Assembly (NCBI GenBank): GCA_003614675.1
Contig: ML002219.1
Span: 60,187 to 80,186 of the forward strand
Direction of reading: 5' to 3'
DNA from: Dimargaris cristalligena
Lineage: Eukaryota
DNA length: 20,000 bases
The notes beneath the pieces were generated by a model. That model was given only the letters and a program-made list of their open reading frames with translations, did not search any database and was not told the origin of the DNA. Of the stretch, positions 3,447 to 17,649 are shown piece after piece. The translations under genes and the position numbers were made by a program. Position 1 is the stretch's first letter. Every line of letters starts with the position of its first letter.

Positions 3447-3482
<36 letters not shown>
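3447..3482. repeat. Compound microsatellite (AT)n(GT)n in the INCENP 3' region
   Basis: Seen directly: ATATAT... followed by GTGTGT... Confidence 0.9.
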
Positions 3483-3795
3483 AGGATAATTAGGGGTCGG
3501 GGTGAAAGGGGCGCTGAACAACACAAGAGGAATGCATATATGTATATATGGATAGATGAAGGAATGAATGCACAGATGGGCAGCTAATGTATCAATACTT
3601 TCAATGCAATATCAAATAAGTAAAAGTAGCGGGGAAAGGGAGTTGGAAGGGAAAGCCATCGTAGGGAATACCAACATTAAATAGCAATTATTAATTTAAC
3701 ATTAAAAGTATTTATAAATATTAAATAGATTTGCTAGCGCTAAATTGCTAAAGAAGATTAAAAATAAGCCCCCCAAAGAAGGGGGGATATCTAGA

Positions 3796-6700
3796 TTAAC
3801 GATACCCCATCCGCTTCTCATACTCCAACTCCTCCCGCGTGGTCAGTTTATCCGTGCCCACCCAATTGGCCGAACTCGTACGCACCCGGTACCTCCGGTC
3901 CCGTTTTTTGAAGATTTCCTCCACCATAATGGGTTTGATTTTACCAAAGACCAAATCAGGGTTCATTGTACTCTGTTTCAAGAGAGCCGCCCGCACGGCC
4001 GGACTGGAGGCCCATTTGGGAACCCGGGGGGAGGCCGCCTTGTTCCGACCGGAGCCACCGTTACTTCCGGAAGCGGGGCTGGAGCTGTAGTCGTATTCGT
4101 CTTCATCGTCGCTGTACTCGTCGGGGATTTCCGGCAATTCATTATTAGGTCCCAACACGGTGGTGAACTCTTCGGAGGGGTGAGCTTTCCGTGAGGACGG
4201 GGCGGGCTTGGTTTTTACCCGAACGGCGGTGGTAGGTACCTCGACCGGTTGCGGCAGCTCCTGTGATGGCTGTGCCGTTGGTCGGTGGGTAGGCGAAGTA
4301 CGCGCGGTAGAGGTAGTTATCTCAACCGAGGATTGGGACTGGTCATTCAACGAGGCGTAGGACGCCGACATCTGGGAGGAGGTGGACACGAATGATTCTT
4401 GGCCCGACTCGTCACTATCGGCAGCAGCATCACTGTTCCGCAGAGGCACCATAACATCCTGGTAGGCGGTAATCACTGCGTTCTTGTGCTTATTAAACGA
4501 TGTAGGGGCAAATTTCTTGGCCCGATCCGATAGCGGCGTGTTATAATCATCCGGGGAGCCCCCCGAAGGTGGTGGGGGTGGAGTAGCGACTTGTCCTCGT
4601 AGTTGAGAGGGTAGTGATTCAGAGGAGCCCGTAGTCGCTGTACGAACATGGGCCGGGTTCGGCTTGGCAGTGGGCGGGGCGTTAGCTTTAGTAGTCGTGT
4701 GAGCCTTGGGGTTAAGGGACTTGAAAACCGTCCGAATTCCTTCGGTGGGTTTGGCAACGGGAGCGGGCCGGGCGGGAATTCCCGTTTTGTTCGCCAGGGG
4801 ACGTCCAGACGGATCCCTAGAAGCCGTGGAGGAGACAGCGACCGAGCCCACCGAATAAATGACCGTCCCCTTGGTAATCGGGGCGGTTTCCTGGGGGCTG
4901 GTATCTGGTTTCTGAACAGCTGGCTTATGGTTAGTTATGCGTTGACGATAGGACTGAATATCAGTAGGCTGCGGGGTAAATTTAGACTTGCTGGTGACGG
5001 GATTCGAAATAATCCGTGTACCGGGGGCAACATGGGGTTGGGCCCCCTGGTTCGCCCGGGCGCCCGCCGTAGACTGGGTAGTGGCGAATAATCCCACGTC
5101 GGTCCGATGAGGTAGTTTGGTGTTGGTGTTGGGTTTCGTACCCGGGTTGATATTAACCGGGGCAGTCGTCGCAGTCGTACCACGGACGGGGTTGGTCACG
5201 GTCCGGGTAGGCAGGCGCGAGCCCATCCCCAATGAGGACGCCAGTAAGGTCGAATTGGACGGAACGGGGGTGACCACAGCCGGAGCAGGATCGGACGACT
5301 GGGATGAGGATGAGGATACGGTGGTCAACTTCATGGCCGATAGGAGCTTCTGGACAATGTAGTTGCCACCCGCGAAGGGTGCACTCAAAGCACTAGCCAG
5401 AGCCCCCGGTGTTCGCAGGGCCGATTGACTTCCCTCGGGCATCAGCTTAACCGGGGCTGTTTCCTGGGGGGTGGTAAACACTTCGGTGGATTTAGGGCCA
5501 GTTTGGTTGGGCGGGGTTCGGACAACCAGGAAGGGGTCATCTAGATCGGGATAGCCAGCTGGTGGGGAGAGCATACCGGTCGCGGGGACGGGGGAAGTCG
5601 CGGCTGAGCTGGGAGTGGTGGGGTATGTAAGGGTAATGGGTGCAGTGGGTAAGGGTGAGGGACCGGACTCGCCGGACTGGTGATGCACCGGAGCGGAAAC
5701 CGGACTAGACTCAATCAGCATAGAGGAGGAAGCGGCGTTGGCCAATACGTGGGCAATCGATGGGCTTGTTTTGCGGGTCACATTTAATAACACTGGTGAA
5801 CCTGGCAAGGCCAACCGAGCCACCTTGGGTGATCTAAAGGTCGAGGTCGGCGAAGTCTGGGCGAAAGGGCTGGGTAGCGGCGAGGCAGGAACATTTACCC
5901 CACTAGGCTCGGCTTCCAGCTCCATTGGAGCTAAAGATTGAGCCACCAGGGCCGCCGGTTTGACTAGCTCCTCCGTAATAGCCAGTGGCACCTTGGGCGA
6001 AGCGGACTGGGGAGCTGGTACAAGCTGGCTGATGGCCGGGGAGGGGTCAAGTGGAGCACTGTCCACCACCATGGACTGGGACTGCGCTAACGGAGGGGTA
6101 AATAGGCCAGGTGACATGATCGACGGGCTTGATCCGGCTAGGGGCGGCTTCACCGCCGGACGCAGTTGCTTAAGGGCCTTGCGAAGCCGTTCGGTACCGG
6201 ACAGATACTCTTCTTTGGTTTTCTTGTCGAGACTGAGGTTATCGATGCCCCGGGGGTGAGGGGACGGGGCAGTCATCACCGTGGGTGGCTTGGAGGCGGT
6301 CCCCGGGGTGGGTACAGATGATGGTTCCTCTTGGGGTAAGGGAGCGGCAGTTGGCGGGTTGGCGGCCGGACTGGCCTGATTCACCGTCGCGGGTGATAGG
6401 GACGCGTTGGTGATTCGGCTATGCAGTTTGCGAGAGGATTTACGGGCACCCTGCGACCGACCATCCCGGGGTGGGGCGGGTTGGACGGTCGTGACGGAGG
6501 AAAGGGATGGGAAATGAAGGTGAGAGGGACCCGCGGGGTCATTGAGCCGGCTTTTCTTAGCAGACGATGGCCGCCCGGTGGGGCTGGCCGGCTCTTCGGT
6601 TGATTGGATCTGGTCATCAACCTGTGGCCGAGGGGATAAACTTGCCGTGACCGACAATGGCGCTGTGGGCGCGGTGGTCGGATCCACCAAAAAGGCAGTG

Positions 6701-7512
6701 GTCAAAACCTGGGACTGGTCCAAAAGCATCGCGTAGGGAGGGGGGTAATCGTCGGCCAAGGGCACCTCGTGTACGGTATCGGAGGTGGACATGCGCGATA
6801 TCGATGGAATATCAAGCACAAAGCTGGGGCCATTACCAGCCAACGCAGGACTGAGTTGATCATGGAGGAGGGCCAAATGATTAACGGGTACTTGAATAGC
6901 GTGAATGGGCGATAAGTTGGATACAGCTAGATCGGTGACTATGTGGAACTCGTGGTTGCGGGGGGAGGAGGTGTGGGTGAGGTGGACGGGGGCTGATGAA
7001 GCAGCCGCGGCGGCGGCAGTCACCACCGATTGATCCACGAAATCAGAGGGCCGGGAGCCCTTCTGAACGGTATCCAAGCACTGCTGGAACAAGTCGTCCA
7101 ATTTCCCGTAAGTCATGACCGACTCCGGGGGCCCTACGCCGACTTCCACCGCTGCGAGCGTAGGGGTTCGGGTCATGGGGTGGGCGTAGAGGAGAGCCTC
7201 CGCCGCGGCGTCTTCGTGGATGCTCTCCAGTATACGGGATTCCGAAAAGACGTCCCGCACGTGGGGTCGACTAGATAGGACCGAGGAACCCCCGGCACCC
7301 TCCCGACCGGACGGGGTTTTGAGCACGCGGGACACTACGGATTCCTGCTGGACACTGAAAATGCCGGAGTAGTAGTCCTGCAGCCAGGCCATGTTGTCTT
7401 CGAATAAGTGGCTGAATTCGGAGAATTTGTCGTCGCATAGTTGGGCGTATTTGCGCTTCTGGGCCAGCGGCCACTGGGCCTCGGCGGGTATTGGGATTTG
7501 GTCGGCCAACAT
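3796..7512 (-). CDS. INCENP: Inner centromere protein (INCENP/Pic1/Sli15), chromosomal passenger complex scaffold, 1238 aa, intronless
   Basis: C-terminal IN-box (Aurora-binding): ELPEIPDEYSDDEDE...VPKWASSPAVRAALLKQSTMNPDLVFGKIKPIMVEEIFKK...RTSSANW...DKLTTREELEYEKRMGY, including the TSS motif. N-terminal helix QLCDDKFSEFSHLFEDNMAWLQDY resembles the survivin/borealin-binding helix. Long P/S/T-rich disordered middle with many S/T-P sites. Confidence 0.92.
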   Translation of the reverse strand: MLADQIPIPAEAQWPLAQKRKYAQLCDDKFSEFSHLFEDNMAWLQDYYSGIFSVQQESVVSRVLKTPSGREGAGGSSVLSSRPHVRDVFSESRILESIHEDAAAEALLYAHPMTRTPTLAAVEVGVGPPESVMTYGKLDDLFQQCLDTVQKGSRPSDFVDQSVVTAAAAAASSAPVHLTHTSSPRNHEFHIVTDLAVSNLSPIHAIQVPVNHLALLHDQLSPALAGNGPSFVLDIPSISRMSTSDTVHEVPLADDYPPPYAMLLDQSQVLTTAFLVDPTTAPTAPLSVTASLSPRPQVDDQIQSTEEPASPTGRPSSAKKSRLNDPAGPSHLHFPSLSSVTTVQPAPPRDGRSQGARKSSRKLHSRITNASLSPATVNQASPAANPPTAAPLPQEEPSSVPTPGTASKPPTVMTAPSPHPRGIDNLSLDKKTKEEYLSGTERLRKALKQLRPAVKPPLAGSSPSIMSPGLFTPPLAQSQSMVVDSAPLDPSPAISQLVPAPQSASPKVPLAITEELVKPAALVAQSLAPMELEAEPSGVNVPASPLPSPFAQTSPTSTFRSPKVARLALPGSPVLLNVTRKTSPSIAHVLANAASSSMLIESSPVSAPVHHQSGESGPSPLPTAPITLTYPTTPSSAATSPVPATGMLSPPAGYPDLDDPFLVVRTPPNQTGPKSTEVFTTPQETAPVKLMPEGSQSALRTPGALASALSAPFAGGNYIVQKLLSAMKLTTVSSSSSQSSDPAPAVVTPVPSNSTLLASSLGMGSRLPTRTVTNPVRGTTATTAPVNINPGTKPNTNTKLPHRTDVGLFATTQSTAGARANQGAQPHVAPGTRIISNPVTSKSKFTPQPTDIQSYRQRITNHKPAVQKPDTSPQETAPITKGTVIYSVGSVAVSSTASRDPSGRPLANKTGIPARPAPVAKPTEGIRTVFKSLNPKAHTTTKANAPPTAKPNPAHVRTATTGSSESLPSQLRGQVATPPPPPSGGSPDDYNTPLSDRAKKFAPTSFNKHKNAVITAYQDVMVPLRNSDAAADSDESGQESFVSTSSQMSASYASLNDQSQSSVEITTSTARTSPTHRPTAQPSQELPQPVEVPTTAVRVKTKPAPSSRKAHPSEEFTTVLGPNNELPEIPDEYSDDEDEYDYSSSPASGSNGGSGRNKAASPRVPKWASSPAVRAALLKQSTMNPDLVFGKIKPIMVEEIFKKRDRRYRVRTSSANWVGTDKLTTREELEYEKRMGYR

Positions 7513-9772: not shown

Positions 9773-11422
9773 ATGGCCGATTCCGAAAAGAAACTCATCC
9801 GCGAAGTATGGGCCAGCAATGTCGAGGCCGAGTTCGCTATCATCCGGAACTTGATTGAGAAATACCCATACGTGTCCATGGTAAGAATGCTGTACTCCCC
9901 CCTACTTTTTGCATTCCGTATGCCTTGTGGAGGAGGAGGAAGAAACAGCAAGTAGGCATATGCAGATGAATAGCCCGAGATGAGTACGGACAGGTGCATC
10001 CCCCTTCGTCTCCGTTGACGATTCTAGTCGTGCCCATTTTATGCAGCGGGGCCCATTGTCCCGATTCAGCGACCACTGGGGGGTTTTCCCTCGTGCCTTA
10101 CTCTCACTCCCTCCCCCCCCCGAGTCTCTACCCTGTGGAATATATATAACACCTGGTGCATTTTCTTCATGCGGCTCTATGAACTCCCATAGTACGAGGT
10201 CATACTACCGACGCGTTATTTAATCCCGATTATGCCCCATTGTTCCATAACCTTACCGCCTGTGTTTCATTCCTTTTGGTTTCAGGATACGGAATTCCCC
10301 GGAGTGGTGGTGCGGCCGATGGGTAACTTCCGGTCCAGTGCCGACTACCACTACCAAACTCTGCGGTGCAATGTGGATCTGCTAAAGATTATCCAGCTAG
10401 GCATCACGTTTGCCGATGAGTATGGCAATTTCCCACCCGAGGCCAGTACTTGGCAATTTAACTTTAAATTCGACCTCAAGTAAGTTAAATAAAACCATCC
10501 GGAAGAAGTGGGATTGGAAACGCATAGTGTTTATTACCCCAGGGCTGTGGGCGGATATTACCGTGACTCGAGTACCCAATTCATTAACCCCCCCCCCATT
10601 TGTATCTATTTTAACCCAACCCACTCGGCCAATATGTTTGGTATGGCTATAAACATGATAGTGAGGACATGTATGCGCAAGACTCGATTGACTTACTAAC
10701 GAATTCGGGCATCGACTTCAACAAGAACAAAGAGTACGGCATTGAAGTAGAACATTTCGGCGAGCTCATGACCACGTCGGGCCTAGTGCTTATGGACGAT
10801 GTCAAATGGATTTCCTTCCACAGCGGCTACGACTTCGGCTATCTACTCAAAGTACTCATGTGTCATAAGCTACCCACCGACGAACAGGGGTTTTTCGACA
10901 TGCTGGGCACGTATTTCCCGTGCATCTACGATATTAAGTACCTCATGCGTAGCTGCAAGAACCTCAAGGGCGGCCTTCAAGACGTGGCAGATGACCTGAG
11001 TGTGCCCCGGGTAGGACCCCAGCACCAGGCCGGCAGTGATAGTCTATTGACGTCAGCAACGTTTTTTAAGATGCGCCAGATTTTCTTTGACGATAAGATT
11101 GACGACGAGAAATACCTGTAAGTGGCTAGAACTGGGGGGTGGTTGGATATTAGCTATAAATTGCACCGTGGGGTGGTAGGGAATTATCGGGTGTGACTAT
11201 TAATTAGTGGACTAGTGTGTAAGTTTCCTGACTAACTTTAATGCCTATATATTATATTCATCACTATCCCTCTTTTTTATGTATTTATTATTTCTATACT
11301 ATCGACGATACAATAGCGGGTATTTGTACGGACTTGGTCAGGGCCATATTTCGACCCACGGCGCACCATTTGTATCCAACAATTCCATCAGCGTAGGCGG
11401 TCGGGCGGGTACCCCAATTTGA
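9773..11422 (+). CDS. CAF1: CCR4-NOT deadenylase subunit Caf1/Pop2/CNOT7 (DEDD family), 287 aa; exons 9773-9880, 10286-10479, 10662-11117, 11317-11422
   Basis: Spliced translation: IREVWASN...[17 protein letters not shown]...[17 protein letters not shown]...[22 protein letters not shown]...FHSGYDFGY...IYDIKY...[10 protein letters not shown]...KYL|GYLYGLG. Three GT-AG introns (9881-10285 GTAAGA..TTCAG; 10480-10661 GTAAGT..GATAG; 11118-11316 GTAAGT..AATAG) keep the frame, total 864 nt. Catalytic D-T-E, D, H and D residues are intact. Confidence 0.96.
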
Positions 11423-11799
11423 ACGGCGCACTGATTTCCGGAAGTCCATATTCCCCTTGTTGCTCGATATCTGGTGGAACCACGGGATGACTTGGTTGGA
11501 TCTAGTCACCACCGCCCCGTGATACCATTTACTTAGGAAGCGGGGCACTCGTCATTGGAGGAGAGGCCCTTTGACCTACTGATTTGTCATTATAGATATA
11601 TTTATAAAGCCATATATATATATAATGTTTTTTCGGTGTGGGGTTTTTTTGAGACGATAATTCAGGTATTATGTCTTTTTTTTTTTTGATGACCGGTTGC
11701 TTCCGATAGACCCGATGATCAATGTGTAATCTGGGTAGTCTAAGTCCTATTTCGGGGGGAAGGGGTGGGAGAAGACGCAGGGGTGGATAAAATTAGGTA

Positions 11800-11840
11800 C
11801 ACGGTCTGACCCAAAAATTTTGCCACTAGTGCTTTAAAAT
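11800..11840 (+). repeat. Mariner TIR (left, 3' end of the transposase)
   Basis: Inverted match to 13064-13104, preceded by TA. Confidence 0.9.
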
Positions 11841-11876
11841 GAAAACGGTTTAAGGTATTTACATATTTTTTACTGT

Positions 11877-12919
11877 TTATTCAAAATAAGATCCTTTTTC
11901 ATCAATGCACTACTGTAATTGCCTAAATAATGAGTAGAAGCAGCTTAGAAATCTATCCTTTGAGATACCCTTTAGGATGTTGGTCACAGTGTCTTGGGTG
12001 TCCTGTATGGAGCTGCAACACTCCCCTTTTATAGCCAGCTTAAGTTTTGGGAATAGCCAGAAGTCAGCTGGGGCTAGCTCAGGTGAATATGGTGGGTGGC
12101 TAAGTATTACTACACCTCTTTTAGCCAAATATGCCCAGATAATTTTGCACTTATATATAGGTGCATTATCATGGAGGAGACTCCAGGATCCCTGCTTCCT
12201 GTACTCTGGCCTTACATGGTTGATCCTTGCTAGTAGGTGTGTCAAGACTCCCAGGTAGTAATGACTGGTGACTGTTTGGTCTTGGGGAGTGAATTCCTAG
12301 TAGATAATCCCCTTGGAGTCAAAGAAAACAGTGAGCAAAGTCTTGATTTGGCTCAGTTGAAGGTGTGATTTCTTCAGTCTTGGATCTTCAGTACCTACCC
12401 ACTCAGAGAGTTATTATATTTTGTTGATGGCTCATATTGGAAGTACCAAGTCTTGTTGCCAATAATAATACTTTGGGCAAAGTTTTGGTCATTCTTGCCT
12501 ATTTTCTGTATGTCTAAGCTGTAGTCTACTCTGGATATCATTTGGTCATTAGTTAGCTGGTGGGGGATAAACTGGGCATGGATCTTTTTCAGATGTAAAT
12601 CCTTAACCAGAATCCTGTTGATAGTGAAGTTAGGTATTCCAGTCATACCCTTAAGTAATCAAGTGATCATCTACTAGTCAGTTTTTAGGATATTAGCAAC
12701 CATTTAGATGTGTTGCTTGCTACACCCTTCCTTTAGGTGTCCTGAATGGGAGTTACCCTCAATCTCTTCCCAACCTTCTTTAAAGCTCACAAACTAATGG
12801 AAAATAGTCACAGCACTATCCCCATGGATATTTTGGATTATCTCCAGGGTCTCATTGGCACTTTTTCCAAGCTTATAACAGAGCCTAATGTTTAATCAAA
12901 TTTTGAATTTTGAATACAT
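11877..12919 (-). pseudogene. Mariner transposase pseudogene (multiple stops, one frameshift near 12405, first catalytic Asp->Asn)
   Basis: MYSKFKI*LNIRLCYKLGKSANET (HTH region)...AQFIPHQLT (WVPHEL-equivalent)...IIIGNKTW (TGDETW)...IKTLLTVFFDSKG...HVRPEYRKQGSWSLLHDNAP...HPPYSPELAPADFWLFPKLK...GSYFE*. There are 34 residues between the HDNA Asp and the final Asp. Confidence 0.93.
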
Positions 12920-13063
12920 GATAAGGTAGGAAAAATTGACTTAGGAAAACTAGTATAGTAATAAAACTAAAAATGCTGGAGCTTTAAAATTTTCCCACAT
13001 AATAGAGTTTTTATTTACCTATTTAAAACTGTTTTACATTGAAAGATAGTGCATGCGAAACCG

Positions 13064-13104
13064 ATTTTACAGCCCCAGTGACAAAACTTTTTGGTCAGAC
13101 TATG
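13064..13104 (-). repeat. Mariner TIR (right, 5' end of the transposase)
   Basis: Inverted match to 11800-11840, followed by TA. Confidence 0.9.
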
Positions 13105-13925
13105 TAAGTCATTGCCTGTTATTCCCTTACCCATGGGACCTTATCCACACTTCCCTACTGGCTGAATGGGGGCCGCTGGGATGGTATTGTTGCTTGCTGG
13201 GTGGAAGGTGATTGCACTGGGATTTACGAATGCGTTACTGTTGCTACTACTATCCTGATTATTGTCTTGATTATATTTTTCATACACCTGACCCCTCATC
13301 GCCATAATTAAAATTATAATTAGTTTATATTATGCCTCCAAATAGGTGCATTCCCGATGGACTGACTCGTTATTTTTAAAATATCACATCACGGCATTTC
13401 GGGTGAGGTGGGGGTGATGCATTGTAGTGGGAACGGGAGAAGGACAGGGGGTGACGACGGGGATGGTTCGTCATAGGCGGGAAGAGTCGTTTCTAAGAAG
13501 CCTCCTGACCCCCCCCCCCTTTCCCAATTGGTGGCGGCGGCCCAGGGAACGGGAGGCAGCCTGGTCGGTGAAAAATGGTGAATGATTTTCGGAATCTCGA
13601 CCCTTCCTTTCCCTCCCCTCCCTACACCCAAACCGACAGACGGACAGATACACGCACACCGACACACAGGGGTCGCATGGGGAGAGAGTGTTGGGTAATG
13701 GAGAGTGGGTGGGGCTTGGGAACAAAGGAGCAGGTCGTTGCACGAGGTTGTGCGGGATATAATGGAATGGTGGTGTATAGAGGAAAGAGGGATATTCCCT
13801 ATAACGAGCGAACGAACAGCCAGGCCGGTAGGTGGGTGGGTAGACAGACAGGTAGGTGGGTGTGGGTATAATACTTGGCTAATATGGAGGGACGGGGGGG
13901 ACATATACAACAAGATGCGAGAGGG

Positions 13926-13960
<35 letters not shown>
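13926..13960. repeat. Compound microsatellite (GT)n(AT)n
   Basis: Seen directly. Confidence 0.9.
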
Positions 13961-14173
13961 GGTTATAAGAGTGGTTGGTGGGTTGAAGGCGTTTGGTTAC
14001 AGTGCAACAGTCTTTAGTGGGGCGGGTGATTCGACGGGATGCATTGGACCGGGGGTGGGGAAAGCGGAAGGGATAATATATGGGTGCGGGTGACGAAGCA
14101 ACACGGAGAGAGAGAAAGGGGGGGCATCGAATGGCAAAGCAGAACCGGGGTGGGGCGGTGTATTTTTTATGAT

Positions 14174-14197
14174 TATATATATATATATATATATATA
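14174..14197. repeat. (TA)n microsatellite
   Basis: Seen directly. Confidence 0.9.
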
Positions 14198-14536
14198 CAT
14201 TTTGATATATGTATATAATGCGCGCGGGAACGGACGGATATGCGGGCCCACGGTGGTTGGGGAGTGCGGGGACGGGACCAATAGGGCCGCAGCCGAGGCC
14301 CCAGAAGGGATGATGGACGCGGGAAACGAATAAGAAGAAAGGAAAGTAGCGACGGGAGGAGAGGGGAGCGCCCGTCGGAAATGGGGGCGACGGACCAGTC
14401 AGTATAGTCCACATTGGTGTGTGACGCGCGTGTGGGCCGGCGGCGGCTTGCGTATGTACATTTGACCTACAATAAGGGAAGAAGGGGTGAGAGAGGGAGG
14501 AGTGTGGACGGAGGTGCGGGATAATACATGTTAGGC

Positions 14537-14557
14537 GAGAGAGAGAGAGAGAGAGAG
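14537..14557. repeat. (GA)n microsatellite
   Basis: Seen directly. Confidence 0.9.
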
Positions 14558-14824
14558 GGAGATGGACGGCACCGATATCGAGTGCGACGGCTAGCTAAAG
14601 GGGGAGAGAATGTGGCCGCCGGCCCGACTAGTCTCGATGGTAAGTGCTGTATATATATTATACAGTACGAGAGAGGTTCTTTTCCCCACAGTGCATGCGG
14701 AGCGGGAAAGGACAGCGACGGAGGGAGGGAAGAGATTGCCACACTTCTTGCGGAGACGGTATGGTTTTTGGGATGCGGCTAATGTGGGCCGAATAATAGG
14801 CGTACGCAGGGGCCTCCGACTCTC

Positions 14825-15170: not shown

Positions 15171-15793
15171 GGGGGGGGCGTCGATGGGATTATTATTGCA
15201 GCATTTTTATAGTATAGTATAGTTTTAGTGGGTGTTTAGCCTGGCTCCGGCCCCCCCGTCTCACCCTCGTTCGCCGCCATCGGCCCTTTTTTTCCGCCCC
15301 TTGCCATATGGATTTTCTCTCCCATTCTCCCATATATACCATTAAACACTTACGTCTCTCGCCTCGCCTCGCCTCGCACGCCGCGCGCTCCTTCCGAACG
15401 AGACCTTTCCTCTCCCTCTTTACCTTTCCTTTCCCTTCCCTTCTCTTCCGCTCCTCCCTCCTCTTCCTTCTTTCTCCTTCGGCCGTCCCTTGTTTGCCAC
15501 GATTACTTACCCCCGGCTGTCTTCCGCATTTCTTGCTTCGTTCCCGTTGCTCGCCATCCCGTCTGTGCGAGCCAAGCCTACTTACCAACCGACTGACTGA
15601 TTCCTGCCTTAAAGTCTCTCTCTTCCCTGTCCGCAGCCCACCTATCTACCTCCCCGTTTCACTGTTCTCTTACTCCTTATCCTTCCTATTCGTCGCCGTC
15701 GTCGTTGTCGTTATCGTCGTCAGCCGCCCCCTTTTCCACCCTAACCCCCTCTTCTATATCCCTTCGGCTTTACCGCATATACCTTTGTCCGCC

Positions 15794-17488
15794 ATGGACT
15801 TACCGGCCAGCCTCTCCCCGTCCCCCGAGCCCAAGCACGACGACGACCACATGCTGGACGACGGCTTTGCCCCCACCTATCAGGTCTCCCCTGTCTCACA
15901 GCCTCTGGCCTCTTCCACCCTCCCCCGCCACCCCGCCGACACCCCCTCGGCCGCCGGTTCCGGCGCCCACCGCGCCTCTCTGGCTAGCCAGGCCCGCAAT
16001 GTCAATGCCTGGCCCCATGAGGAAGTCGTCATGGTCCTCGAAGAAGTCACCAAACCCGAGGAACTCGAACTCTTCAAGCAGGGCAAAAAGGGCCAGGCCC
16101 TCAAGAATGTCTACGATTTGCTGCCCCACCGCTCCCGCAGCGCCGTCCACAATAAACTCCGCCAACTGGACCGCAATTACAAGGAACTGGTCGAACAGAC
16201 CAAGACCCGCCAGTGGAAGGTCCGTGTCCAAGGTCTGACCCCCGAGCAGATCCATGACAAGCTGGTGCAGGAGTTCCGGTACTGGGACTACCTCGACAAA
16301 ATCATCACCATGTCCGACGACGAGGCCGCCAACCTGGTCGACAAGCCCCACCACGGCGGTGGTCATCACCACCACCAACACCATGCTTCCGGTGCCGGCG
16401 ACCCCTTCAGCACCACCCCAACCTCCGCCCACCATCCCCATCATTCCCGTTATAGTGATAATTACGACATGGACGACGAGGATGGCATGACCGCTAGTCT
16501 GCATTTATCCGACAGTGAACCCGAAGACAGTCACTCGGCTTCCAATGGCCGTTACCATTCCGCCACCTATGTCTCGGCCACTGCCGCCCCAGGCGCCTCA
16601 ACCTCAGGCATCCACCAAATCCAGCACCACAACCACCACCCCGATCACCCGGCCGAGGAACATTCGTACGACCCTTCGGCCGGACCTTCCGTCCGCTCCC
16701 CCTTACATCCCGCCTACGCTTCCGATGGGCACCATGTGCCGTCCGCCCACCACTCCACCCTCCCCAACCCGGCCATGGCCCACTCTAATAGCAACCACAG
16801 TAATCATAGTCCCAATAATAATGCCACCACCACCACCCCTAATAACAACCACCACCTCCTTAATTCCGCCACCCCCAACAACCACCACCACCACCACCCC
16901 CCCTCCACCCAAAGTAATGGCCAACGCCCTCCCATCGCTACCCTAAATACCACCCCGGCTTCGGCCCGGAAACGAAACCGGCCCTCCGCATCTTCCCTCG
17001 CCGTGACTGCCGGTCGGGAACGGGACCGTAATACCCTTAAACGGCCCCGCCCTTCTACAACAACAGCAACAACAACAACAACAACGGGCCCTTCCGCCCA
17101 TGCCCATTCCTCCCATCCACTTCCCCCCCTCTCTGCCACAGCCGCAGCCCCCATCAATGTAACCCAGGAATTTGCCCTCTCCCCCTTACCCGCCGAAATC
17201 CTCCAAAAACCCGACATGTACCTCGCCGCCCGTAAACTCGAACTGGAGATGCTCCAGGTACGGCACCAGATTATGCAAGACCAAGAACGGGCCGTACTCG
17301 ACCGGAAGAAGTTTGAATTCGAACGGGAACAGGCCCACTACCTCCGTAAAAACGAAGCCCACCGCCTCAACATGGAAAAACAACACAATGACCTAATGTT
17401 AATAGAAGCTAAAAGTAAAACGACGGCTCTGCAGTGGCGTATTCGCTCCCAGAATGCCGATTACGATTCGGCGTCCGACCGTGAATAA
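15794..17488 (+). CDS. Putative Myb/SANT-like (trihelix/MADF-type) DNA-binding protein with His/Asn/Thr-rich disordered region and C-terminal coiled coil, about 564 aa
   Basis: Start placed at gccATGg (15794), where codon usage becomes strongly C-ending. Domain NAWPHEEVVMVLEEV...RSRSAVHNKLRQLDRNYKEL...EFRYWDYLDKII matches the W...R-x-x-x-x-[VI]-x-x-K-x-x-x-L...Y/W-x-x-L-D pattern of Myb/SANT-like domains. NLS-like RKRNRP and KRPRP motifs. C-terminal heptad-like ARKLELEMLQVR...RKKFEFERE. Confidence 0.78.
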   Translation: MDLPASLSPSPEPKHDDDHMLDDGFAPTYQVSPVSQPLASSTLPRHPADTPSAAGSGAHRASLASQARNVNAWPHEEVVMVLEEVTKPEELELFKQGKKGQALKNVYDLLPHRSRSAVHNKLRQLDRNYKELVEQTKTRQWKVRVQGLTPEQIHDKLVQEFRYWDYLDKIITMSDDEAANLVDKPHHGGGHHHHQHHASGAGDPFSTTPTSAHHPHHSRYSDNYDMDDEDGMTASLHLSDSEPEDSHSASNGRYHSATYVSATAAPGASTSGIHQIQHHNHHPDHPAEEHSYDPSAGPSVRSPLHPAYASDGHHVPSAHHSTLPNPAMAHSNSNHSNHSPNNNATTTTPNNNHHLLNSATPNNHHHHHPPSTQSNGQRPPIATLNTTPASARKRNRPSASSLAVTAGRERDRNTLKRPRPSTTTATTTTTTGPSAHAHSSHPLPPLSATAAAPINVTQEFALSPLPAEILQKPDMYLAARKLELEMLQVRHQIMQDQERAVLDRKKFEFEREQAHYLRKNEAHRLNMEKQHNDLMLIEAKSKTTALQWRIRSQNADYDSASDRE

Positions 17489-17630
17489 ATGAGAATAGTT
17501 TCAATGAGATTTCATTTGGTGTTTCTTTTTTATATAAAACAAACAAACAAATAGTGCCTTTCCCCCCCTTCCCTCCACCCCATTATTCGTATGTATAAAT
17601 ATATTATTTATATAATATATACATACCTTC

Positions 17631-17649
17631 CTCTCTCTCTCTCTCTCTC
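17631..17649. repeat. (CT)n microsatellite in the 3' region
   Basis: Seen directly. Confidence 0.9.

Follow-up and report, generated by a model that had tools for sequence, protein, structure and literature searches.

Introduction

How did a DNA transposon in a fungal genome lose every CpG dinucleotide (cytosine followed by guanine) from its body, while the single-copy DNA on both sides kept its own? The locus is a decayed mariner element at 11800-13104 of a 20,000-nucleotide stretch of Dimargaris cristalligena (GenBank assembly GCA_003614675.1, contig ML002219.1, positions 60,187 to 80,186 of the forward strand). This whole stretch is hereafter called the window, and all coordinates refer to it. 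C>T mutation directed at repeats has been documented in Pezizomycotina, under the name repeat-induced point mutation (RIP), as well as in Pucciniomycotina, where the target is TpCpG; CpG decay is documented in methylated basidiomycete repeats. A preliminary description of the window, made from its letters alone, attributed the CpG loss to an active, homology-directed mutator with CpG as its first and CpA as its second target. Here we report that the changes are directional C>T transitions limited to the repeat, that they follow a 3'-neighbor rule (G, then A), that they arose independently among copies, and that the ancestor was rich in CpG. On balance, we favor the reading that the element was methylated at cytosines as a repeat and then lost them through deamination, CpG far ahead of CpA and CpA ahead of other contexts.

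Results

The mariner element and its transposase gene

The element is 1305 bp long (11800-13104). A TA target-site duplication is read in the sequence on each side, at 11798-11799 on the left and 13105-13106 on the right. The terminal inverted repeats occupy 11800-11852, at the 3' end of the transposase gene, and 13055-13104, at its 5' end. When the two ends were aligned to each other, 23 of the first 28 bases matched, and the likeness, broken by one 5-bp gap, extended to about 50 bp. The left tip reads CACG and the right tip CATA, as the preliminary description had it.

The decayed transposase gene lies on the minus strand at 11877-12919, from an ATG at 12919-12917 to a TAA at 11879-11877. 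Its best database relative, P0003, is an intact protein of 372 residues on a 1334-bp contig and carries the domains PF17906 (HTH_48) and PF01359 (Transposase_1). The assignment of the window copy to these mariner domains rests on P0003, the window's own frames being interrupted by stops. In a tblastn comparison, residues 2-372 of P0003 were aligned to the window in two frames with 65% and 76% identity. P0003 belongs to the same family as the element, because the alignment extends through the translated 5' leader. The frame changes at about 12405, near residue 197, where a 2-bp insertion (12405-12406) causes a frameshift; the two letters are missing in 1, 2, 4, and 6 contigs of the four sequencing runs described below. 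One 3-codon gap is the only other interruption of the alignment, so that indels are indeed few, as stated earlier.

Eight in-frame stops interrupt the gene (R31, W68, Q98, R108, R109, R113, Q233, and R362 in P0003 numbering). All of them are C>T or G>A changes, five from CGN, two from CAR, and one from TGG. In P0003, 34 residues separate the Asp of HDN from the Asp of ADF, a spacing that may correspond to the D,D34D catalytic triad of mariners. Both of these residues are kept in the window copy. The first catalytic Asp (GDETW) has become Asn, and the window copy is therefore catalytically dead.

Among named relatives, those nearest to the transposase are mariners of arthropods, namely a spider, ants, and Drosophila (P0166, P0171, P0237, and P0247; 41-56% identity), which makes a horizontal arrival of the family plausible. 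A scan of the Joint Genome Institute (JGI) metagenomes with P0003 yielded a single distant locus (34% identity), and a degenerate pattern of the inverted repeat scanned across the genome contigs gave 0 matches. When short open reading frame (ORF) fragments of other copies were sought, none of the same family turned up, the best being 62% identical.

CpG content of the window

The element has CpGs at 11802 and 11846 and then at 13056 and 13062, with nothing between 11846 and 13056, a gap of 1210 bp in a window that contains 960 CpGs. Only one other gap, from 1639 to 2932 (1293 bp), exceeds 182 bp, the length of the third largest. In the CpG-free interior (11848-13055, GC content 0.379), 0 CpGs were observed against 43.2 expected from base composition. 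The Poisson probability of this result is 1.7e-19, or 7e-14 if the local observed/expected ratio (o/e) is set at 0.7. The surroundings are different: CpG o/e is 1.00 in the left flank (11200-11799), 0.71 in the right flank (13105-13500), 0.94-1.00 in the two large genes, and 0.68-0.94 in the other AT-rich spacers. The C>T effect thus ends at the borders of the element, and the surrounding single-copy DNA keeps its CpGs. The CpG-free stretch of about 1.2 kb, the four CpGs that persist at its ends, and the CpG-rich neighboring genes had all been named in the preliminary description, and all were found as described. Genome-wide CpG depletion was rejected as an explanation, since flanks, genes, and AT-rich spacers retain CpG (o/e 0.68-1.00).

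Classical RIP is recognized by a high TpA/ApT ratio and a (CpA+TpG)/(ApC+GpT) ratio below about 1.03. In the element, the former is 1.05, the latter 1.28, and the classical composite RIP index -0.23. The second ratio is raised, as a turning of CpG into TpG and CpA would predict; the classical indices miss the element because CpG decay refills the pool of CpA and TpG.

Direction and sequence context of the changes

The ancestral state was taken from P0003, codon by codon, for 346 codons. Of these, 249 are the same in both; the remaining 97 differ, 88 at a single base and 9 at two. Seventy-nine single changes can be uniquely inferred: 48 G>A, 19 C>T, 5 A>G, 2 T>C, and 5 transversions. The C>T and G>A changes account for 67 of the 79, in agreement with the earlier view that most lesions are transitions. 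Nine changes are ambiguous, five of them third-position transversions and four R>W or R>stop (CGN>TGN). At the 97 differing residues, outgroup transposases sided with P0003 at 70 and with the window copy at 4, and gave no decision at 23.

P0003 has 29 Arg residues, of which the window copy keeps 7, all of them AGR. The other 22 have decayed from CGN and now read as H (7), Q (4), W (2), C (2), stop (5), Y (1), and N (1); in 4 of the 22, both strands were changed (TAG three times and TAT once). Because 22 of the 29 Arg residues of P0003 show CGN decay, the ancestor must have been rich in CpG, with at least 22 CGN codons. A CpG-poor ancestor, which the preliminary description had listed as a possible refutation of its view, was rejected on the same count.

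All 32 CpGs that can be placed in the reading frame (22 in CGN codons, 8 across codons as C|G, and 2 at second positions) were lost. Of the 44 CpA/TpG sites that the amino acid fixes, 11 changed (H>Y 4/9, Q>stop 2/16, C>Y 1/6, W>TAG 1/5, and M>ATA 3/8) versus 4 of 69 in the other non-CpG contexts (Fisher p=0.0047). When cross-codon and second-position sites were pooled with these, the counts were 34 of 117 and 13 of 157, respectively (p=8e-6). A secondary CpA component, as proposed earlier, is thus real. Transitions at A/T were seen at 7 of 359 sites and transversions at 10 of 1733 paths; transversions and transitions outside the CpN contexts, which if frequent would have pointed to simple age, are rare. 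The hierarchy as reconstructed from the protein comparison is CpG (all), then CpA (about 25-29%), other C (6-8%), A/T transitions (1.9%), and transversions (about 1%).

The single lesions cited in the preliminary description were found again by comparison with P0003. TGDET reads IGNKT (GGC AAC AAG at 12452-12460), DRR reads D followed by two stops (GAC TAG TAG at 12671-12679), and the W>TAG change lies at 12795. RSGR>HSGH is present, R>TGA occurs twice, H>Y is found in both GIIY and NAPIY, and M>I (ATA) occurs three times.

No preference for a 5' neighbor was seen either in the CpG-type events (T 9, G 7, A 4, C 3) or in the TpA-type events (C 10, A 9, T 9, G 3). Changes of the same strand are not clustered along the gene (33 runs versus 28.3 expected). 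The complete loss at CpG corresponds to at least 2.4 hits per site (95%), versus 0.086 hits per site at other cytosines. CpG was thus lost at a rate at least about 28 times that of the remaining C contexts; a conservative bound puts the factor at about 16.

Other copies of the element

Contigs of four public sequencing runs (X1-X4) were aligned to 10500-14500 at a likeness of at least 80%. The flanks are single-copy, with 0 differences in long contig pieces. The element is covered by up to 16 distinct contigs at one place (X4), and the summed contig depth over it is 3-20 times that of the flanks, a depth figure that is not a copy number. Loose ends with differing flanking sequence sit exactly at the borders, at 11798-11804 on the left and 13098-13106 on the right. 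An assembly artifact was rejected, as contigs from three of the four runs pass from the left flank into the element and show 0 differences.

The copies diverge from the window copy by 2.7% (15/554) to about 18% (108/615). Among their differences, transitions and transversions numbered 273 and 64 in X1, 213 and 38 in X2, 313 and 81 in X3, and 402 and 128 in X4, and changes in both directions were seen. The element is therefore multi-copy, and each copy bears its own set of transitions, as expected of independent mutation. Some copies still read C at 11920 and 12474, and so keep CpG at these places. Among the difference rows listed (40 of 585), the majority letters, where given, agree with the P0003 state, for example at 11920, 11936, 11954, 11998, 12016, 12107, 12199, 12280, 12627, 12666, and 12756. 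Because of this agreement, P0003 is a fair proxy for the starting sequence of the family.

In X2, the interior of the window copy (12162-13031) has about twice the depth of the flanks with 0 differences. This depth suggests duplication of the dead copy, or its movement in trans, at a time when it had already been mutated. The flanks of other mariner copies also begin in TA or CA repeats, which fits insertion at TA targets.

CpGs that survive at the ends

Of the five CpGs known for the ends, four are kept, versus none of the 32 inferred for the interior (p=7.6e-5). The effect thus fades in the last 48 bp or so. All four survivors lie within the inverted repeats of about 50 bp, and the right tip has already lost one (CATA versus CACG). 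At 13056, most of the depth of other copies reads T. The edges are spared, as the preliminary description had said; its use of them as a sign of the mutator is less secure, since selection explains them equally well. The survivors lie inside the inverted repeats, and for that reason selection for mobilizable ends may have kept them. Weaker marking of the ends, or the persistence of copies whose intact repeats can be mobilized in trans, may account for them with an equally good fit. An edge effect of homology sensing may fit them as well.

A second CpG-free block

The other long gap encloses a CpG-free block at 1641-2931 (1291 bp; 0 CpGs versus 41.8 expected). TpA is in excess here (o/e 1.43; TpA/ApT 1.22), TG is low (o/e 0.80), (CpA+TpG)/(ApC+GpT) is 1.08, and the composite index is +0.14. 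The block is rich in TAG and TAA triplets. Six read-through frames of it were without a Pfam match (E<=0.1), and neither terminal repeats, long direct repeats, nor a recognizable coding remnant was found in it. It is probably an older, more decayed relic of the process that struck the mariner. The TpA excess would fit a later stage, because TpG and CpA would go on to TpA with time.

Lineage of the host

A CAF1/POP2 deadenylase gene (PF04857) on the plus strand, with at least two exons (10193-10483 and 10615-11121), was used to place the host. The last exon (150 residues) has 3595 relatives. The best natural ones (77-80% identity) are all from early-diverging fungi, namely Mucorales, chytrids, Glomeromycotina, Basidiobolus, and Umbelopsis. 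Ascomycetes and basidiomycetes are absent from the best 120 of the 3595. Identity falls to 69-70% in Amoebozoa and to 66% in human CNOT7. In a quick tree (36 rows, 150 columns), the host stands beside Kickxellales, with a weak support of 83 in the Shimodaira-Hasegawa-like approximate likelihood ratio test (SH-aLRT). These matches support a host that is not an ascomycete, in line with the preliminary description. They point only weakly, by one 150-residue exon, to a place among the early-diverging fungi.

Discussion

Proposed methylation followed by deamination

In the explanation to which we give somewhat better than even odds, cytosines would have been methylated in the repeat only and then lost to deamination, those of CpG far more than those of CpA, and these more than the rest. 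The element is one dead copy of a multi-copy mariner in a fungus that appears to lie outside Dikarya, and its body took a heavy, directional load of C>T changes after insertion. The host would mark the repeat with cytosine methylation, densely at CpG and more weakly at non-CpG sites, mainly CpA, as DNMT1-type and Dim-2-type enzymes produce. Methylated cytosines would be lost through deamination, either spontaneous or assisted by the methyltransferase. The outcome is irreversible inactivation by eight stop codons and the loss of the first catalytic Asp. Both the methylation and the enzymes are what we infer from the pattern of changes.

Three published lines make this course feasible. Repeats of Phycomyces carry 5-methylcytosine (5mC), and enzymes of the DNMT1 and Dim-2-like kinds are present among early-diverging fungi (PMC13297926, PMC7862722). 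In Zymoseptoria, mitotic C>T changes at the CpA sites of methylated repeats are driven by Dim2 (PMC8016269). Taken together, they offer a route to both the CpG and the CpA component without RID.

Several points weigh against this explanation. The ancestral DNA was inferred from a protein, which reveals neither synonymous nor non-coding changes and leaves the contexts across codons ambiguous, and the base-level analysis covers one copy of one family. CpG decay by passive loss of 5mC proceeds in mammals at about 10-15 times the background rate. The ratio of the element (at least about 28-fold, with a conservative bound of about 16-fold) is at or above this figure, and a purely passive process is strained on that account. 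In addition, 5mC is called near-undetectable in most early-diverging fungi by reviews, according to the accessible text of one source (PMC13297926).

A possible homology-triggered process

The strongest rival is an active, RIP-like process triggered by homology, in a sexual or pre-meiotic phase or in mitotic growth, acting in bursts on CpG above CpA in a fungus outside Dikarya that should lack RID. We regard it as unlikely, and about equally so when it is narrowed to a true enzymatic RIP-like defense of an early-diverging, Zoopagomycota-like fungus. Much of the pattern suits it. CpG loss is saturating at a low background of A/T transitions and transversions, and 4 of the 22 CGN codons were changed on both strands. 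The CpA>TpA excess is significant, the effect is co-extensive with the repeat and fades toward its ends, and each copy has its own set of transitions. Other results oppose it. The same-strand runs are missing, and CpGs at 11920 and 12474 were kept in some copies. The doubled interior in X2 has no differences, though many CpA sites remain there to diversify, which argues against an efficient duplication-triggered process acting now. Furthermore, RID/Masc1 is reported only from Pezizomycotina (PMC5751038), and the kingdom-wide k-mer screen of Badet and Croll 2025, as far as its accessible text goes, found repeat-directed signatures in ascomycetes only (PMC12543289). Our own literature search found, among the papers listed, no report of a RIP-like process in early-diverging fungi, which is weak evidence, as supplements were outside its scope.

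The interpretation given in the preliminary description therefore stands in part. C>T change restricted to a repeat, CpG and CpA as its targets, and a host that is not an ascomycete were upheld. The words "active" and "homology-directed" go beyond the evidence; nothing in the data shows either, and the excess of CpG loss overlaps what passive 5mC decay could give.

Deaminase editing and simple ageing as improbable causes

Editing of the transposon, for example of excised or replicating copies, by a single-strand cytosine deaminase such as those of the AID/APOBEC type is very improbable. It would suit the strong C>T/G>A bias (67/79) and the independent sets of changes among copies. AID/APOBEC-type deaminases are guided by the 5' neighbor. 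In the element, preference is set by the 3' neighbor (G, then A), with none for the 5' neighbor, and changes of both strands are interleaved. Mariners, which move by cut and paste, are not known to require a single-stranded or reverse-transcribed stage, and this also counts against such editing.

Plain ageing under an ordinary mutation spectrum, or arrival of an element already poor in CpG (e.g., horizontally from a CpG-depleted animal genome), would suit the plausible horizontal arrival from among arthropod mariners and the AT-richness shared with adjoining spacers, but hardly any likelihood is left to it: neighboring AT-rich single-copy DNA holds a CpG o/e of 0.68-1.00, the reading frame of the ancestor contained at least 32 CpGs and at least 22 Arg codons of the CGN type, C is still found at 11920 and 12474 in other copies of the same runs, and the CpG losses are themselves inactivating, with 5 of the 8 stops from CGN.

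Comparison with known systems

The signature of the element is closest to the CpG-predominant, CpA-secondary pattern of Tuber and the CpG-plus-CpA pattern of Aspergillus. A CpG-first, CpA-second signature has been described in Tuber melanosporum transposons and a CpG-and-CpA "RIP" in Aspergillus, and CpG-only signatures are known in basidiomycetes (PMC4352252). The element shares with Tuber and Aspergillus the confinement of C>T changes to repeats, the lead of CpG over a weaker CpA component, and an AT-enriched dead element with many stops. It differs in that the hosts of these patterns are Pezizomycotina with RID and Dim-2, whereas its own host is early-diverging by CAF1, and in that its CpG loss is complete.

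With Neurospora RIP, the element has in common that C:G>T:A changes are limited to duplicated DNA, that stops are created, and that copies are mutated independently. Neurospora RIP prefers CpA, whereas the element lost 32 of 32 CpGs and 11 of 44 CpAs. The (CpA+TpG)/(ApC+GpT) ratio is below 1.03 in Neurospora RIP but above it in both the element (1.28) and the block at 1641-2931 (1.08). The element also lacks same-strand runs.

In Pucciniomycotina (Microbotryum, Puccinia, Melampsora, and Rhodotorula), TpCpG hypermutation has been described (PMC3318451). As in the element, CpG sites are lost from repeats in a RIP-like manner in a non-ascomycete, and, in the accessible text of that source, Pucciniomycotina have no recognizable rid gene. 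Their target is given there as strictly TpCpG, whereas the element lost all CpGs whatever the 5' base and shows a CpA component in addition. A TpCpG rule of the Microbotryum type was rejected by the 5' neighbors of the CpG-type events (T 9, G 7, A 4, C 3).

Passive 5mCpG decay, as in basidiomycetes and vertebrates, resembles the element in that the turning of CpG into TpG or CpA is confined to the repeat, sparing genes and spacers, and in that CpA+TpG rises. It predicts no excess of CpA>TpA, in contrast to the 11 of 44 versus 4 of 69 found here, and it rarely leaves 0 of about 43 sites at a background divergence of about 1-2%, as in the element. The Dim2 mutator of Zymoseptoria tritici likewise causes C>T changes in methylated transposons, by CpA>TpA and outside meiosis; in that fungus CpG is methylated and not mutated, according to the accessible text (PMC8016269), whereas in the element CpG is the main target.

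These comparisons suggest that the element belongs to the mutational silencing of methylated repeats, which is already known elsewhere and little documented in the lineage of the host. With every CpG erased, a measurable CpA>TpA component, and untouched flanks, the element shows that the host's part of the fungal tree has, or once had, mutational silencing of repeats directed at cytosines. If an active and homology-dependent process were at work, the locus would bear on when RIP-like defenses arose. A true RIP-like process would mean that repeat-induced mutation predates Dikarya or arose more than once, contrary to the k-mer screen as described in its accessible text (PMC12543289). If methylation decay is the cause, the locus would be a handy marker when 5mC and the enzymes behind it are sought in a lineage that has been little studied.

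Other features of the window

On the minus strand, a single exon at 3796-7512 encodes an INCENP-like protein of 1238 residues, with a PF03941 ARK-binding box at its C-terminal end (E 1.8e-13). Outside this box, the protein is of low complexity and rich in Ser, Pro, Thr, and Ala; its exact sequence is on record in NCBI. An ORF of 726 residues on the plus strand (15308-17488) contains long runs of His, Asn, and Thr. Residues 230-360 of it gave a weak Atlas lead (0.84, against a guide value of 0.9) to clusters of Myb/SANT-like DNA-binding domains, commonest in Mucoromycota. For a protein of 292 amino acids, the Atlas leads, all below 0.9, were to bacterial TPR/HEAT-like clusters. Microsatellites of the (TA)n, (GT)n, and (GA)n types lie in the AT-rich spacers at 3447-3483, 13935-13960, 14165-14220, 14535-14561, and 17627-17649.

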